Below are positions 2,462-6,612 of a DNA stretch of 25,763 nt, piece after piece. The DNA is taken from IMG/VR virus record IMGVR_UViG_2778261381_000004, positions 1-25,763 of that record, one strand, 5' to 3'. Under the pieces are notes generated by a model. The model saw only the letters and a program-made list of their open reading frames with translations. It ran no database searches and had not been told where the DNA came from. This DNA comes from a virus (taxonomy: Duplodnaviria; Heunggongvirae; Uroviricota; Caudoviricetes). The position numbers were made by a program, and so were the translations under genes. Position 1 is the first letter of the stretch. The number at the start of each line of letters is the position of its first letter.

Positions 2462-4168
2462 TTAATGATTGAGTATTTTATTAACACGCAGCTTATTAAG
2501 TGTTGATTTTGAAGCAACTTCCTCCAAAGCTTCTATTGCTTTATCAGTGATGCTCTTCTGTTCGTCTGTCGGGTGTTGCATACCCTTGAACTTGAGCATA
2601 GTCTCTTCTACTAAATTCAAAGCATCCTGATCACAGGATAATATCCAGTTTACGTAATCATCTTTAGAAAAACTGTTAAGAATATTCACATCACTATGGT
2701 TAAATCTTCCACCAGCTATTTTTTTTATAATTTTATCTAAGTTATAGTCATCTGGATTTCTATCTTTCAATTTTTTTTCAATTCTGAAACCTAATTCTTC
2801 ATTTCCGAAGATCTCTACTCGCAAAGAATTAAATGTAGCATACGCATTGTCTTTATTAACAAAAGCATCTGCATATGCCTCTATAATATTATTACAATCT
2901 CTATCCAATTTGATTAGGACATTTATTAAACCTACGAACTGTCCAATTGGTATACGCAACAGACTATCGTTAATTACGCGCTCAATTTGAAAAATAAACT
3001 CTGATTCATTATCTTTAAAAGAGTTTCTAAAAACATCCCAAATTTTATAAACCTCACATAAAACCCTATTATCTCTATATTGTTCATTTTTTTCTTTTAT
3101 TATATTTAGAATATTGCTTTCAGAAGACACATAACCGTTCTTAAGGTAAAAATCTATATCATCATCGAAAGCACTTTCTGCTCGTTCATAAATAATATCA
3201 AGGCTATTAACAAATGAATATACAGAGTTAACTTCTTCCTTTTCATCTTTATCATCTAACATATAGTCGAATGCATGTATATTTTTGATTGACTCCTTAA
3301 ATGAAGCATAATCAACGCTAGGAACACCAAAATAGTAAACCACTGAAAATAAGACCAATCTATTAATAAAACTTTCTCTAACCTTATCCTCTGCTAACTT
3401 TAGCACATCTCTAAATATAACTAGAGATGATTTTATTTTATTTAATATTCTAATGTTTTTGATGTTTAAATCATTTGCTAGGTTTTTTAACAAAAGAAAA
3501 TCAGGGTCAGTCTCATAAAAAACTTTTCTTAAGTTTTTCTCAGGCGTGGGATCGTATTTTATTTCCACATCAATTATTTTTTCTCTATACTCTAAAAACT
3601 GTTGTTGTGCAGTTTCTTCATGTAAGTTATCTTCATTTAATATTAGAACAACCTTGCAATTTTTTCTTCTTGCCAACTCATCAATTACCCCCATAATCTC
3701 TTTAATTTCTAGCGCACTACCTTTTCGTTCAATATCATCAATGCAAACCAAATAATTATTAACAAATTTATACTCAAGAGATGACAGCAGATTATCAGTT
3801 TTGAACCCAAAAAAATCGTTCTTTCCAAAATGTATTAAAAATTTTGACAAGGAGTTGTATTTCAACCATCCCCAAAACCCATTTCTATAACGAATCATAG
3901 TTCGATCCGTTTCAGATAAAATCAGTTCTTTATATTTCTTTTCATTAATTGGTGTGGCACAATGATAAAGAGCTTTTTTAATGTCTCCAATAGAATTTAT
4001 TCCAAACAAAGAAACATATGAATATGCATTAAAATCTAATTTTTTAGAATGTTTAGTATAAAAGCTATTCCAATAATGCGTTTTACCTACTCCCCAATTT
4101 CCTTTTATGACAGCAACCCGATGATCTGAGTCCAAAAAATTTTTTAAAAATACTTCTATCGATTCCAT
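2462..4168 (-). CDS. KAP-family P-loop NTPase, candidate accessory (moron) or defence gene
   Basis: 568 aa ORF. Walker A GNWGVGKT near the N-terminus and Walker B LVCIDDIER match the KAP NTPase signatures (G-x-W-G-x-G-K-S/T and hhhhDD-x-R). The gene is visibly far more AT-rich than its neighbours. No transmembrane segment is obvious. Confidence 0.6.
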   Translation of the reverse strand: MESIEVFLKNFLDSDHRVAVIKGNWGVGKTHYWNSFYTKHSKKLDFNAYSYVSLFGINSIGDIKKALYHCATPINEKKYKELILSETDRTMIRYRNGFWGWLKYNSLSKFLIHFGKNDFFGFKTDNLLSSLEYKFVNNYLVCIDDIERKGSALEIKEIMGVIDELARRKNCKVVLILNEDNLHEETAQQQFLEYREKIIDVEIKYDPTPEKNLRKVFYETDPDFLLLKNLANDLNIKNIRILNKIKSSLVIFRDVLKLAEDKVRESFINRLVLFSVVYYFGVPSVDYASFKESIKNIHAFDYMLDDKDEKEEVNSVYSFVNSLDIIYERAESAFDDDIDFYLKNGYVSSESNILNIIKEKNEQYRDNRVLCEVYKIWDVFRNSFKDNESEFIFQIERVINDSLLRIPIGQFVGLINVLIKLDRDCNNIIEAYADAFVNKDNAYATFNSLRVEIFGNEELGFRIEKKLKDRNPDDYNLDKIIKKIAGGRFNHSDVNILNSFSKDDYVNWILSCDQDALNLVEETMLKFKGMQHPTDEQKSITDKAIEALEEVASKSTLNKLRVNKILNH

Positions 4169-4219: not shown

Positions 4220-4579
4220 TCACCCTTTCTTCATCAACTCGCGTTTAATTTCATCGGTACGCATCGTGACATCGGCAGCTGTGATCGCCTCGTTAAGTTT
4301 CACGATGTCCTCGATTTCCTGCGGTGTCTTCTCCGCAAGATGGAAAATAGCAGCACGAATCACGTCAGAACGAGTGAACTTCTCGAAGCGAGGGATGAAC
4401 TTCATCATCTCCAGCAGTTCGAAGTATTCGTCCTCCAGTGACATTGTGCGGCTTTTAATTTTCTCTTTGCCACGAGTCGGGCGTCCCTGTGGTCTGACTG
4501 GTTGGCGCAAAGGAGTTGTGTTCTTAGCCGGTGCATCAGGCTCTTTGCGCTTTGCTAGGTCACCCATTTTCATGGACAT
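4220..4579 (-). CDS. Small partition protein, ParG-like centromere-binding protein (possible ribbon-helix-helix)
   Basis: 119 aa ORF whose start overlaps the parA stop. Basic, Pro-rich N-terminal tail followed by a short structured C-terminal region. Function assigned mainly from its position directly after a small ParA, as in type Ib partition systems. Confidence 0.5.
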   Translation of the reverse strand: MSMKMGDLAKRKEPDAPAKNTTPLRQPVRPQGRPTRGKEKIKSRTMSLEDEYFELLEMMKFIPRFEKFTRSDVIRAAIFHLAEKTPQEIEDIVKLNEAITAADVTMRTDEIKRELMKKG

Positions 4580-5247
4580 TATTCTTCTTCCTCCAGACTC
4601 AACAGATAATCTACAAATTCTTCAAACTCGGCTTCCGCCTTTTTGTCGCGCTCGCTACCGGTCATTTCAAAGATAGAACGACCAGACTCTTCCGCATCAT
4701 CATAGACGTTGCGGTTATATAGATTGACTGGCGCAGACTCGATGCCAAACGTCTCAACAATCTCTTTAGCCGCCAGAATGCGAGACACTTGTGATGGCAA
4801 AGCCGGGCACTGGTTCATGACCGCGCGGACCTTCACTTTATCGTTTACATTACGAACATTGTCGATAATAGGATCGATGTCACGCAGAGATTTCAAATCA
4901 CGACGCTTAGGACGAAGCGGGATAATGATAACGTCGGCCATCAGCATCGCTTGTCGCTGAATTTCGGAGTCAAAGCCACCAGCATCTACCACTACAAACT
5001 CAGCTCTACCCTGAAGCGATTTTAGGTGCTTAATGATGTCATCCTGAACGTATGCAAAAGGAATCAGCTCAAGGTCTTCGTTCTGTCGACGGTCTTCACA
5101 CCAGCTTGTTGTCGTGCGCTGAATATCTATATCAGTGATATAAACCTTCTTCTTCTTTTTGACTTTCAGGCAAACGGCAATTTGCTGGGCAACGGTGGAT
5201 TTGCCAGGCCCGCCCTTTGTGCCGCCAACCACAAAGATCTTGGTCAT
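4579..5247 (-). CDS. parA: ParA-family partition ATPase, small type Ib (ParF-like)
   Basis: 222 aa ORF. Deviant Walker A GGTKGGPGKST (KGGxxK[ST]) close to the N-terminus. Size and lack of an N-terminal HTH fit type Ib ParA. Confidence 0.8.
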   Translation of the reverse strand: MTKIFVVGGTKGGPGKSTVAQQIAVCLKVKKKKKVYITDIDIQRTTTSWCEDRRQNEDLELIPFAYVQDDIIKHLKSLQGRAEFVVVDAGGFDSEIQRQAMLMADVIIIPLRPKRRDLKSLRDIDPIIDNVRNVNDKVKVRAVMNQCPALPSQVSRILAAKEIVETFGIESAPVNLYNRNVYDDAEESGRSIFEMTGSERDKKAEAEFEEFVDYLLSLEEEE

Positions 5248-5299
5248 TGGAGAGTTCCCTTTGCGTCTATTATTATCGTCTGAAACAACTTGTTTTCTT

Positions 5300-5490
5300 A
5301 TATGTGATATAGCCTAAATGCCTACGGCTACGGTGTAAAGGTTAAATGGTAGGTTGTGGTTAACAATTGGCAATCATAGCTTGTATTTGTCTGTTGAAAA
5401 AAGTAACAATGACCTCTATATTACAAGTACGGTGATATGCCGTACACAATTTGATAATGCACACGTAATGGGCTATAGCCTTTTAAAGTA
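5300..5490. promoter_or_regulatory. Divergent control region between parA and the toxin-antitoxin operon (candidate centromere/operator repeats and promoter)
   Basis: Seen in sequence: tandem CTACGGCTACGG (5322-5333); TACGGTG at 5329-5335 and again at 5428-5434; inverted repeat GTACGG (5427-5432) / CCGTAC (5440-5445); perfect palindrome GGCTATAGCC (5471-5480) overlapping a sigma70-like -35 TTGATA (5451-5456), 17-bp spacer, -10 TATAGC (5474-5479). Confidence 0.35.
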
Positions 5491-5565
5491 ATTTTTGAGT
5501 CGAAAACTCAGTTTGAACAGAGGAGATTGATGGCCTTCCTACATCACGGCCATCAGGAGGAATAC

Positions 5566-5835
5566 ATGTCAGCACTAAAAAAGCAGCGCATCGATTTGAG
5601 ATTAACCGATGACGATAAAAGCATCATCGAGGAAGCTGCCGCAATGTCTAACCAGAGCATTACTCAGTTTATGGTTAGCAGTGCATCTGAACGTGCCGTG
5701 AAAGTTATAGAGCAACACCGTAGACTAGTTCTGAATGAAGAATCCTGGAATCTGGTTATGGACGCTATAAGCAATCCTCCGGCACCGAACGACAAGCTGA
5801 AACGAGCTGCTGATCGTCTGAAAAGCATGGAGTAG
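5566..5835 (+). CDS. DUF1778 (TacA/AtaR-like) antitoxin
   Basis: 89 aa from the ATG at 5566, which has a GGAGG 5 nt upstream; the longer ORF from 5527 lacks a well-placed RBS. Sequence RIDLRLTDDDKSIIEEAAA...FMV...RLVLNEESWNLVMDAISNPPAPN resembles antitoxins that pair with GNAT toxins. Confidence 0.8.
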   Translation: MSALKKQRIDLRLTDDDKSIIEEAAAMSNQSITQFMVSSASERAVKVIEQHRRLVLNEESWNLVMDAISNPPAPNDKLKRAADRLKSME

Positions 5836-5842
5836 TTTACTC

Positions 5843-6364
5843 GTGAGCAATACAACGATAGAGATTTTCTCTGGAGAGAAAGATTATGATCTAAACGGTT
5901 TTGATTGCGGCGAAGAGTCACTAAACGCCTTTTTAGCCAACCACTTAAAAAGGCAGCATGAGGGAAAAATTCTTCGTGCTTATGTGCTTTGCACTCAAGA
6001 AGAAAGGCCAAAAGTGTTAGGATATTACACTTTGTCAGGTAGTTGTTTTGAAAAGGAGTCCTTACCTTCAAGAAGCAAACAAAAGAAGGTTCCTTATCGG
6101 AATGTTCCAAGTGTTACTTTGGGTAGGCTGGCTTTGGACAAGTCCCTTCAAGGTCAAGGATTTGGCTCAATGCTTGTAACACATGCAATGCGCGTTGTGT
6201 ACAATGCATCTCTTGCTGTAGGCATTCATGGACTTTTCGTTGAGGCGTTAAATGACAAAGCCAAGGCGTTTTATAAAAGTTTAGGCTTTATCCAGCTGGT
6301 TGGTAACAACGAGCGTTCTTTGTTCTATCCTACAAAATCTATCGAAAAATTGTTCGAAGAATAA
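5843..6364 (+). CDS. GNAT-family acetyltransferase toxin (TacT/AtaT-like)
   Basis: 173 aa with a GTG start 8 nt after the antitoxin stop. FDCGEESLNAFL and TLGRLALDKSLQGQGFGSMLV match the conserved motifs of tRNA-acetylating GNAT toxins. Confidence 0.8.
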   Translation: MSNTTIEIFSGEKDYDLNGFDCGEESLNAFLANHLKRQHEGKILRAYVLCTQEERPKVLGYYTLSGSCFEKESLPSRSKQKKVPYRNVPSVTLGRLALDKSLQGQGFGSMLVTHAMRVVYNASLAVGIHGLFVEALNDKAKAFYKSLGFIQLVGNNERSLFYPTKSIEKLFEE

Positions 6365-6367
6365 TGT

Positions 6368-6389
6368 GTTCCCCTCATTTGAGGGGAAC
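6368..6389. terminator. GC-rich hairpin between the convergent toxin-antitoxin operon and lysis cassette
   Basis: Seen in sequence: GTTCCCCTCA (6368-6377) / TGAGGGGAAC (6380-6389), near-perfect. It sits just after the toxin stop and just after the o-spanin stop. No long U-tract on either strand. Confidence 0.45.
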
Positions 6390-6396
6390 TTCGACA

Positions 6397-6612
6397 TCAC
6401 CAACCACAAACCCTCTCTCCCATCGTATTGTGAAAAAGGATTTGGCGTTCGGTTTCTTCAGTCATTACATCATTATTGCTGATATAGATAGGCTCAGCCC
6501 CATCGCAGAACAACACGCTGGCTGTTTGTGGTTTAATGACGCACCCACTTATCATACAACTCACGATGAACGGCAGAAGCATCTTTCTGACGTATTTTAC
6601 TGCTCGTCTCAT
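6397..6612 (-). CDS. Candidate o-spanin (outer-membrane lipoprotein, Rz1-like)
   Basis: 71 aa. N-terminus MRRAVKYVRKMLLPFIVSCMISGC has a basic n-region, a hydrophobic core and an ISGC lipobox. The gene starts inside the 3' end of the upstream i-spanin-like ORF in a different frame. Confidence 0.4.
   Translation of the reverse strand: MRRAVKYVRKMLLPFIVSCMISGCVIKPQTASVLFCDGAEPIYISNNDVMTEETERQILFHNTMGERVCGW

Follow-up and report, generated by a model that had tools for sequence, protein, structure and literature searches.

A GNAT acetyltransferase gene and the small gene upstream of it, carried on a viral genome of the Caudoviricetes, very probably form a toxin-antitoxin operon of the AtaRT/KacAT type, which an SSU5-like phage-plasmid carries as an operator-controlled cassette and whose likeliest role is post-segregational killing. 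The window (the whole 25,763-nt stretch that was analysed, IMG/VR record IMGVR_UViG_2778261381_000004) is 99.7% identical at this locus to Escherichia phage Cyrano (pLF82), which bears out the phage-plasmid context proposed in an earlier note on this DNA. The pair is already known, in that the family is well characterised in structure and mechanism and the locus has been annotated and published in Cyrano/pLF82. Essentially the same locus is found there as CYRAN_26/CYRAN_27, with 99.7-100% nucleotide identity over 5250-6450 and the annotation "KacT-type toxin / putative antitoxin"; some 140 RefSeq plasmids likewise have essentially this locus, as pairs labelled "GNAT family N-acetyltransferase / DUF1778". 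The Cyrano pair was published as a lysogeny-expressed moron, with CYRAN_26 and CYRAN_27 expressed in lysogens at 35- and 60-fold above the local prophage background (PMC9928086). No description of an operator, promoter or leader for the Cyrano locus was found. The features of the cassette, in window coordinates, are as follows:

5355..6404, plus strand: whole accessory cassette of 1.05 kb, with promoter, operator, leader, antitoxin, toxin and terminator hairpin
5394..5399, plus strand: predicted -35 hexamer TTGAAA, the best plus-strand promoter-like site in the scan (10 of 12 matches together with its -10)
5417..5422, plus strand: predicted -10 hexamer TATATT, after a 17-nt spacer and 4 nt before the operator (consensus of the homologues, TATnnT)
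5427..5445, no strand assigned: predicted operator GTACGG-TGATATG-CCGTAC, inverted half-sites with a 7-bp A+T-rich spacer, matching the KacA operator
5446..5565, plus strand: putative untranslated 5' leader of 120 nt
5470..5481, plus strand: leader hairpin 1, GGGC-UAUA-GCCU (RNAfold), which contains the palindrome GGCTATAGCC (5471-5480)
5496..5510, plus strand: leader hairpin 2, UGAGU-cgaaa-ACUCA (RNAfold)
5528..5555, plus strand: leader hairpin 3, UGAUGGCC-N12-GGCCAUCA, a perfect 8-bp inverted repeat also folded by RNAfold, abutting the Shine-Dalgarno sequence
5555..5560, plus strand: antitoxin Shine-Dalgarno sequence AGGAGG, 5 nt before the ATG (read from the sequence)
5566..5835, plus strand: antitoxin gene, 89 aa, DUF1778/TacA ribbon-helix-helix
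5829..5832, plus strand: GGAG in the last antitoxin codons, 10 nt before the toxin GTG, a weak Shine-Dalgarno sequence and possible coupling site
5843..6364, plus strand: toxin gene, 173 aa, GNAT acetyltransferase of AtaT/KacT type, GTG start
6368..6389, no strand assigned: hairpin GTTCCCCTC-ATTT-GAGGGGAAC, with a perfect 9-bp G+C-rich stem, 4 nt after the toxin stop

The gene pair and its family

The antitoxin reading frame extends from an ATG at 5566 to a TAG stop at 5833-5835, and the 89-residue protein that the earlier note had placed upstream of the toxin is indeed present, with its start at 5566 and not 5567. The protein matches Pfam PF08681 (TacA1) at 5.7e-26 (90.7 bits against a cutoff of 21; residues 8-86) and, in phmmer searches of the PDB, aligns over its full length with KacA (6.6e-42) and AtaR (1.3e-40), to which it is about 80% and 76% identical, respectively. 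The Cyrano annotation is 12 codons too long, giving an antitoxin of 101 aa from an in-frame start at window position 5530, and is corrected here to 89 aa, since a 1-nt indel in the hairpin-3 loop of the related loci L002 and L050 breaks the longer frame, and the start codons of both AtaR and KacA correspond to 5566.

The best PDB matches of the toxin are all toxins of the AtaRT/KacAT family, led by AtaT (1.4e-79) and KacT (3.9e-75), and the alignment with AtaT is ungapped across residues 1-172 with 69% identity. The acetyl-CoA motif QGQGFG is kept at residues 102-107 (family pattern Q/R-x-x-G-x-G/A), and the active-site tyrosine, Y144, corresponds to KacT Y145, the KacT alignment being offset by one. 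Both toxin motifs cited previously can be located as FDCGEESLNAFL and (T)LGRLALDKSLQGQGFG, with the reservation that the residue is T where RLGRLA had been written. On the strength of the PDB and TacA1 matches, the GNAT and DUF1778 identities can be accepted and the pair assigned to the type II toxin-antitoxin systems of the tRNA-acetylating AtaRT/KacAT family. It is extremely unlikely that the GNAT protein is instead an ordinary, non-toxic acetyltransferase preceded by a gene for a mere small regulator. GNAT Pfam domains are found in it above their cutoffs and generic GNAT models of Pfam and NCBIfam also match, weakly, as that reading would allow, but the likeness to AtaT, a demonstrated toxin, runs the full length of the protein, its nearest structures are all toxins, and a DUF1778 antitoxin and the family-specific operator are strictly paired with it in every locus examined.

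Between the window and the plasmid allele L002, dN/dS is 0.04 for the antitoxin and 0.06 for the toxin, indicating that both genes are under purifying selection; against AtaT the ratio could not be computed, as synonymous sites are saturated. Homology and this purifying selection suggest that the toxin would arrest growth and that the antitoxin would neutralise it. By close homology, a toxin dimer would acetylate the amino group of charged tRNA with acetyl-CoA and so block translation, while the C-terminal part of the antitoxin would wrap the toxin and prevent its dimerisation. The tRNA targets differ among GNAT toxins, being Met-tRNAfMet and others for AtaT and Ile-tRNA for ItaT. Expectations regarding toxicity, neutralisation, tRNA target, transcription start and operator binding are taken from homologues of 69-80% identity that have been studied experimentally.

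The two genes lie on the same strand and are separated by 7 intergenic nt, as compared with 6 nt in the identically ordered AtaR-AtaT pair of E. coli O157:H7 (PDB 6GTS, 6AJM, 6AJN, 7CHD) and 3-24 nt among homologues. The toxin GTG lies 8 nt past the last base of the antitoxin stop, in agreement with the coordinates given before, and the accompanying suggestion of translational coupling is plausible: low, coupled translation of the toxin, which should stay below antitoxin, would agree with both the short gap and the GTG start, and KacT4 provides a precedent in that its native GUG start limits expression (PMC9431474). The hairpin at 6368-6389, which a terminator scan listed on the minus strand, is likely to terminate transcription in both directions, separating the operon from the convergent spanin genes; because just two T follow the stem, termination on the plus strand is presumed. 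TacA-TacT of Salmonella (PDB 7AK7, 7AK8, 5FVJ and others) shares the GNAT/DUF1778 architecture and the Pfam TacA1 antitoxin family, but is far more distant (toxin E 1e-11 to 1e-19, antitoxin E 1.7e-4) and falls into a different clade from AtaT/KacT1.

Promoter, operator and palindrome

The site at 5427-5445, GTACGG-N7-CCGTAC, stands behind a strong conserved promoter and is most likely the binding site of an antitoxin4-toxin2 complex, overlapping the expected transcription start. Within the whole window the motif has one exact match, and in 100 shuffles it has none. The operator in the KacAT-DNA crystal is AAATGTACGGTTATTAACCGTACATGA, that is TGTACGG-N7-CCGTACA, and spans the kacAT transcription start; R8 and R12 of KacA are essential for binding it and D10 contributes (PMC6698736). 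The window antitoxin retains all three of these DNA-contact residues, and is also identical to KacA of Klebsiella pneumoniae (KacA-KacT, PDB 5ZGN, 5XUN) at M65 and I68, with N70 and K77 in place of Q70 and R77; the spacer of the operator is TGATATG, as against TTATTAA in kacAT. The ataRT operator, TGTACGG-tgacata-CCGTACA, shows the same half-sites and promoter-operator geometry behind a weaker promoter (-35 TAGAAA, -10 TATGCT).

Comparison of 33 distinct promoter/operator sequences gave the consensus TTGAAA-17-TATnnT-4-GTACGG-N7(86% A+T)-CCGTAC, with TTGAAA or a one-mismatch variant at a fixed distance from the operator in the enterobacterial members, and this TTGAAA-17-TATnnT-4-operator architecture was present in all homologous loci inspected but one truncated copy. 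Upstream of the antitoxin, the operator is exactly conserved across ataRT, plasmid, chromosomal and viral loci, including O157 ataRT (L001), the plasmid alleles (L002, L003 and L057-L063) and 16 of 17 genomes of other genera, the exception (L020) being a truncated copy; between the window and L002 the spacer varies and the half-sites are invariant. The DNA pattern alone retrieved 34 loci from IMG/VR, 32 of them with the antitoxin downstream and one further cut off by the end of its contig. Scanning metagenomes with GTACGG-N7-CCGTACAC gave 120 stretches, just 3 of them toxin-antitoxin loci, and did not widen the leader family; the remaining stretches match by chance, the database being very large. 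A hexamer of four antitoxins and two toxins would bind 5427-5445, with the N-terminal ribbon-helix-helix domains (R8, D10, R12) making the contacts. Because the operator starts 4 nt downstream of the -10 and thus includes the expected transcription start, the hexamer would repress its own operon. An excess of toxin would relieve this repression, as in the conditional cooperativity that regulates kacAT (PMC6698736).

The earlier note had proposed another arrangement, in which transcription starts from TTGATA (from 5451) and TATAGC (to 5479) with a 17-nt spacer, and the antitoxin represses via GGCTATAGCC overlapping that -10. The perfect palindrome exists at 5471-5480, the hexamers are present at 5451-5456 and 5474-5479 with the spacing described, and the palindrome block is invariant among the window, L002 and L050 while adjacent leader bases diverge, suggesting some constraint. 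However, TATAGC has a C where a -10 has its T at position 6 and was not listed by the promoter scan, the -35 and spacer vary at 5456, 5458, 5459, 5462 and 5466, and the TTGATA/TATAGC pair is not conserved in the homologous loci L007, L009 and L013. Nor does the palindrome bear any likeness to the KacA half-site, the contact residues for which are kept in the antitoxin and which occurs as GTACGG further upstream. GGCTATAGCC is absent from ataRT and most homologues, such a palindrome being missing in ataRT and the other short-leader members, and G·U pairs at the homologous hairpins suit RNA better than a DNA palindrome. Perfect 10-bp palindromes are, moreover, no commoner in the window than chance (23 seen against 27.2 ± 5.0 in first-order Markov simulations; about 0.15 per 140 nt). 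A search of the window for a second copy of GGCTATAGCC, with one mismatch allowed, as might mark a regulator's regulon, found none. Autorepression through the palindrome from that promoter is very unlikely, and promoter and operator are most likely to be reassigned to a control site about 40 bases upstream, with the predicted autoregulatory site at 5427-5445 in place of 5471-5480. The palindrome itself is conserved within the lineage of the window allele, probably as RNA, forming the first hairpin of the 5' leader.

The 5' leader

Three conserved hairpins would form in the 120-nt leader of the transcript, and the third of them abuts the antitoxin ribosome-binding site, in contrast to the 26-nt, hairpin-free leader of ataRT; among homologues, the start codon lies 40 to 245 nt from the start of the operator. 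The leader of the window as a whole folds no better than shuffled sequences (z = -0.42), so that the case for the hairpins rests on comparison, across only about five lineages. Because the hairpins of different lineages fell out of register when the leaders were aligned with MAFFT, they were compared by eye and by folding each sequence separately.

Relative to L002, substitutions affect 2 of 56 positions inside the three hairpin blocks and 20 of 65 outside them (Fisher p = 9e-5). In hairpin 1, T5481 is C in L002 and L050, changing a G·U to a G-C pair, and the equivalent position is occupied by TAGGC-gataa-GCCTA in L007, TAGGT-gatta-ACCTA in L061, CAGGTT-cga-AGCCTG in L009 and CAGGCT-cga-AGCCTG in L013. 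Hairpin 2 is invariant with respect to L002 and L050, and its position holds GAGCC-ttt-GGCTC in L007, TAAGC-N6-GCTTA in both L009 and L013, and GGTC-gagt-GACC in L061. A hairpin just 5' of the Shine-Dalgarno region is folded by all 22 of the 22 distinct long-leader variants, with stems that differ in sequence; the variant hairpin-3 stems GACCGCCC/GGGTGGTC and GACCGTTCT/AGAGTGGTC contain G·U pairs that only the sense RNA could form. An Rfam search (E ≤ 1) of 5200-6500 gave only sub-threshold chance matches and no known leader RNA. A 7-codon reading frame from the ATG at 5468 (MGYSLLK) was rejected, being neither conserved nor preceded by a Shine-Dalgarno sequence. As to function, our guess is that the three-hairpin leader may set the stability or processing of the mRNA, or translation of the antitoxin.

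The variable slot and the role of the cassette

The cassette occupies a variable slot that has parA on one side and the lysis genes on the other. Homology to SSU5 stops at 5354 and restarts at 6405, and the left junction, at 5353, is common to SSU5-like plasmids of Citrobacter, Salmonella and Enterobacter. The GC content of the cassette is 0.40-0.44, compared with 0.47-0.50 in its flanks, and the pair is the only plus-strand unit among the long reading frames of the window, barring those that overlap longer minus-strand ones. The cassette is missing from SSU5 itself and from other relatives, and is thus dispensable for the element. In different SSU5-like plasmids, the slot holds divergent GNAT/ribbon-helix-helix alleles at the same junction, with antitoxins 87-88% identical and toxins only 62%. 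By comparison, both prototypes of the family are chromosomal, kacAT in Klebsiella and ataRT between livJ and panM, whereas the window pair resides on a phage-plasmid with the ParA gene adjoining it.

Given a cassette that is expressed in lysogens and lies beside the parA operon of a low-copy plasmid prophage, the likeliest role would be post-segregational killing that stabilises the plasmid state, and, judged from genomic context alone, plasmid addiction is the most likely function. The same system with the same regulation could have been selected for abortive infection against other phages, or for exclusion of, or resistance to, related phage-plasmids with cross-reacting alleles; this is possible but rather unlikely. 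Divergent alleles within a fixed junction form the pattern expected under diversifying competition, and some 1 kb past the par genes there is a KAP-NTPase that matches PDC-S49, a candidate system in PADLOC. About 30% of complete E. coli genomes have ataRT on the chromosome, where the operator half-sites are the same, and cross-neutralisation between plasmid and chromosomal GNAT-ribbon-helix-helix pairs is documented in Klebsiella (PMC9431474). Set against these points, neither toxin nor antitoxin matched a PADLOC-DB 2.0 family at E ≤ 0.01, addiction modules classically lie next to a partition operon on a low-copy replicon, and a literature search on phage defence or plasmid stabilisation by the AtaRT/KacAT family found nothing specific, with no report of phage defence.

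A joint reading of leader and slot can be offered as a tentative and unlikely proposal. The three-hairpin leader would be an undescribed cis-regulatory RNA of plasmid and phage-plasmid AtaRT/KacAT alleles, setting the antitoxin:toxin ratio or mRNA lifetime, possibly by the state of the element. Since the operator and the DNA-contact residues are identical in all alleles, co-resident chromosomal ataRT and rival phage-plasmid alleles would in addition cross-repress one another, and the slot would become an arena in which addiction and anti-addiction compete.

Plasmid addiction remains the preferred role. Beyond the corrections to the control site and to the antitoxin start, the cassette provides modest leads in its conserved structured leader, which is missing from the chromosomal prototypes, and in the fixed-junction slot between the partition and lysis modules, where divergent alleles of one toxin-antitoxin family are swapped. 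Such swapping bears on the maintenance of, and competition among, SSU5-like phage-plasmids.

Identity and layout of the gene pair

The earlier note had read this region as a GNAT toxin with a DUF1778 antitoxin, a call that is correct but already known. A search of the toxin against the whole PDB hit AtaT of E. coli O157:H7 (6GTS, 6AJM; E 1.4e-79), in an alignment without gaps across residues 1-172, and Klebsiella KacT (5ZGN; E 3.9e-75); TacT-like toxins scored far more weakly. The antitoxin aligns along its whole length with KacA (6.6e-42) and AtaR (1.3e-40) and hits the Pfam family TacA1/DUF1778 (5.7e-26). In global alignment the toxin is 69% identical to AtaT, and the antitoxin 76% identical to AtaR and about 80% to KacA; this homology places both close to toxin-antitoxin proteins of solved structure. 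The toxin motifs FDCGEESLNAFL and LGRLALDKSLQGQGFG are present, and the protein retains both QGQGFG, its acetyl-CoA loop, and Y144, which corresponds to Y145 of KacT. The antitoxin keeps R8, D10 and R12, which touch operator bases in the KacAT-DNA crystal (PMC6698736). Comparison with L002, a related allele 90% identical to that of the window, gives dN/dS values of 0.04 (antitoxin) and 0.06 (toxin), indicating that selection maintains both genes.

Features of the gene pair (sequence reading of 5200-6600 and, for the two genes, ORF listing)
5555-5560, plus strand: Shine-Dalgarno sequence AGGAGG of the antitoxin gene
5566-5835, plus strand: antitoxin gene, 89 aa, from ATG (5566) to TAG (5833-5835)
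5843-6364, plus strand: toxin gene, 173 aa, GTG start

The genes lie on one strand with 7 nt between them, so the GTG is indeed 8 nt after the antitoxin stop when counted from its last base. In Escherichia phage Cyrano (pLF82) the antitoxin is annotated as 101 aa (4281-4586 in locus L021) from an in-frame ATG further upstream, at window position 5530 within leader hairpin 3 (extension 5530-5565). This start was rejected as an annotation artefact because a 1-nt loop indel in the related alleles L002 and L050 throws it out of frame, and because AtaR and KacA begin at the equivalent of 5566.

Setting in the phage-plasmid

The window belongs to an SSU5-like phage-plasmid. Over 5250-6450 its identity is 99.7% with Cyrano and 99.7-100% with many E. 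coli plasmids, non-mobilizable and about 105-120 kb long; in 143 plasmid records at least 80% of this segment is covered. Cyrano labels the pair "KacT Acetyltransferase-type toxin" and "putative antitoxin", and it is listed among the morons expressed during lysogeny, 35- and 60-fold above local background (PMC9928086). Homology to SSU5 ends at 5354 and restarts at 6405; in the place of 5355-6404 SSU5 has two unrelated minus-strand ORFs. The left junction at 5353 is common to SSU5-like plasmids of Citrobacter, Salmonella and Enterobacter, which hold divergent alleles of the same family in the slot (antitoxin 87-88%, toxin 62% identical). The homology break and the common junction with divergent alleles thus mark the pair as part of a cassette of 1.05 kb (5355-6404) that occupies a fixed variable slot. 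On one side of the pair lies parA, and on the other convergent spanin, endolysin and holin genes.

Neighbouring genes
2462-4168, minus strand: KAP-family P-loop NTPase ORF, 568 aa (Pfam 6.6e-06)
4220-4579, minus strand: 119-aa gene directly downstream of parA, with one base common to both; 'RelE/ParE putative toxin' in Cyrano
4579-5247, minus strand: parA

The GC content of the NTPase ORF is very low, about 0.29-0.31 where the surroundings have about 0.47, and a PADLOC comparison matched the ORF to the candidate defence system PDC-S49 (2.1e-21). At this position Cyrano carries another, shorter gene (CYRAN_30), which makes the site a second variable accessory slot, on the far side of the par genes. 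The 119-aa product had no Pfam or PDB match and falls in PHROG family 5111, whose function is not annotated there. Its position beside parA makes a small centromere-binding partner of the ParA ATPase (ParG/ParB-like) more likely than a toxin, so the 'RelE/ParE' label looks wrong.

A direct repeat, ATGTGATATAGCCT at 5302-5315 and ATGGGCTATAGCCT at 5468-5481 (12/14 identical), has its first copy in the conserved backbone next to parA; the second spans the palindrome at 5471-5480 in the cassette leader. Chance could account for the repeat, or it could be a remnant of recombination or regulation.

Predicted promoter, operator and leader

The note had placed an autorepression operator at the palindrome GGCTATAGCC (5471-5480), overlapping a promoter of TTGATA (5451-5456) and TATAGC (5474-5479). 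All three elements exist in the sequence, but the regulatory assignment was wrong. TATAGC has no conserved final T, and a promoter scan preferred TTGAAA-17-TATATT, with 10/12 matches. Perfect 10-bp palindromes are not enriched in the window (23 against 27.2 ± 5.0 simulated), no second copy of this one was found there, and a KacAT-type operator motif lies elsewhere; the palindrome was therefore rejected as the operator.

Regulatory and leader features
5394-5422: predicted promoter, TTGAAA (5394-5399), 17-nt spacer, TATATT (5417-5422)
5427-5445: predicted operator GTACGG-TGATATG-CCGTAC, beginning 4 nt after TATATT
5470-5481: leader hairpin 1, containing the palindrome
5496-5510: leader hairpin 2
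5528-5555: leader hairpin 3, abutting the Shine-Dalgarno sequence

The operator in the KacAT co-crystal is AAATGTACGGTTATTAACCGTACATGA, a palindrome that spans the kacAT transcription start (PMC6698736). In the window GTACGG-N7-CCGTAC has a single exact match, and none occurred in 100 shuffles. The motif lies upstream of O157 ataRT (as TGTACGGTGACATACCGTACA), of plasmid alleles 68-90% identical in DNA, of seven further plasmid alleles and, in other genera, of 16/17 loci on chromosomes or contigs, the remaining one being a truncated copy. Thirty-three distinct sequences yield the consensus TTGAAA-17-TATnnT-4-GTACGG-N7(86% A+T)-CCGTAC; the window and L002 differ in the operator spacer and have identical half-sites. 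Scanning IMG/VR with the DNA pattern alone recovered 34 loci, with an antitoxin downstream in 32 and one more ending at a contig edge. Moreover, two very divergent metagenomic DUF1778-like antitoxins (e.g. VMSIELKKERLDLRLPPAVK...; L080 5331 and L083 101, both minus strand) retain the exact motif 45-79 nt upstream, so the half-site is conserved far beyond Enterobacteriaceae. Homology and conservation thus give good support to 5394-5422 as promoter and 5427-5445 as operator.

The palindrome itself sits downstream of the operator, in the leader that precedes the start codon. Among homologues the start codon lies 40 to 245 nt from the operator start (45 nt in ataRT). As a whole the 120-nt leader is no more stably folded than shuffled sequences (z = -0.42), so support for the hairpins is comparative. 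Of 22 leader differences from L002, only 2 hit the hairpin blocks, which make up 56 nt (Fisher p = 9e-5): one changes G·U to G-C and the other is a loop insertion. Long leaders of related loci form hairpins at these three positions too, with differing stems, given here for hairpins 1, 2 and 3 in turn: TAGGC-GCCTA, GAGCC-GGCTC and GACCGCCC-GGGTGGTC in the homologous locus L007, and TAGGT-ACCTA, GGTC-GACC and CTGTTTTTACAG-CTGTGAGAACAG in L061. Several stems contain G·U pairs, possible in the sense-strand RNA only, and folding placed a hairpin directly 5' of the Shine-Dalgarno region in 22/22 distinct long-leader variants. An Rfam search of the region found no family matching the leader. On this comparative evidence the palindrome most likely belongs to a structured 5' UTR, as its first RNA hairpin.

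In a sister allele on Salmonella/Enterobacter phage-plasmids the leader carries a tandem heptamer, CTGAAAA, with some CTGAAAATCGAAAA units (L059, about 1004-1201; also L060, L030, L032, L034, L038 and L041). Copy number varies between otherwise near-identical loci, with operator-to-ATG distances of 140, 169, 182, 185, 191, 197 and 199 nt; the array is a variable-number repeat inside a toxin-antitoxin leader.

Mechanism and probable role

By homology with the AtaRT/KacAT family (PMC6698736; reviewed in PMC8138530), an antitoxin4-toxin2 hexamer would bind the operator and repress transcription, and excess toxin would free the operator from the hexamer. Free toxin dimers would then halt translation by acetylating charged tRNA. 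The GTG start and 7-nt gap should hold toxin synthesis below that of the antitoxin; in KacT4 the native GUG start limits expression (PMC9431474).

A role in defence or competition is possible, given the diversity of alleles in the slot, the candidate defence gene close by and the finding that about 30% of E. coli genomes carry ataRT on the chromosome, although PADLOC lends the pair itself no support. Post-segregational killing that stabilises the plasmid is the most economical reading, since the pair lies beside the partition operon of a low-copy plasmid prophage.

On Klebsiella variicola pVir_030666 (L061 1-273), a long-leader allele adjoins the gene for a protein with a SAVED domain, an effector domain of CBASS-type defence, which hints that some alleles reside in defence islands. 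A search of 5426 complete E. coli genomes matched ataRT, which has identical operator half-sites (L001, the O157 locus, 558-578), in 1626 chromosomes, and two copies of the family are present in 71 genomes. Chromosomal AtaR and the phage-plasmid allele could plausibly cross-repress or cross-neutralise each other.
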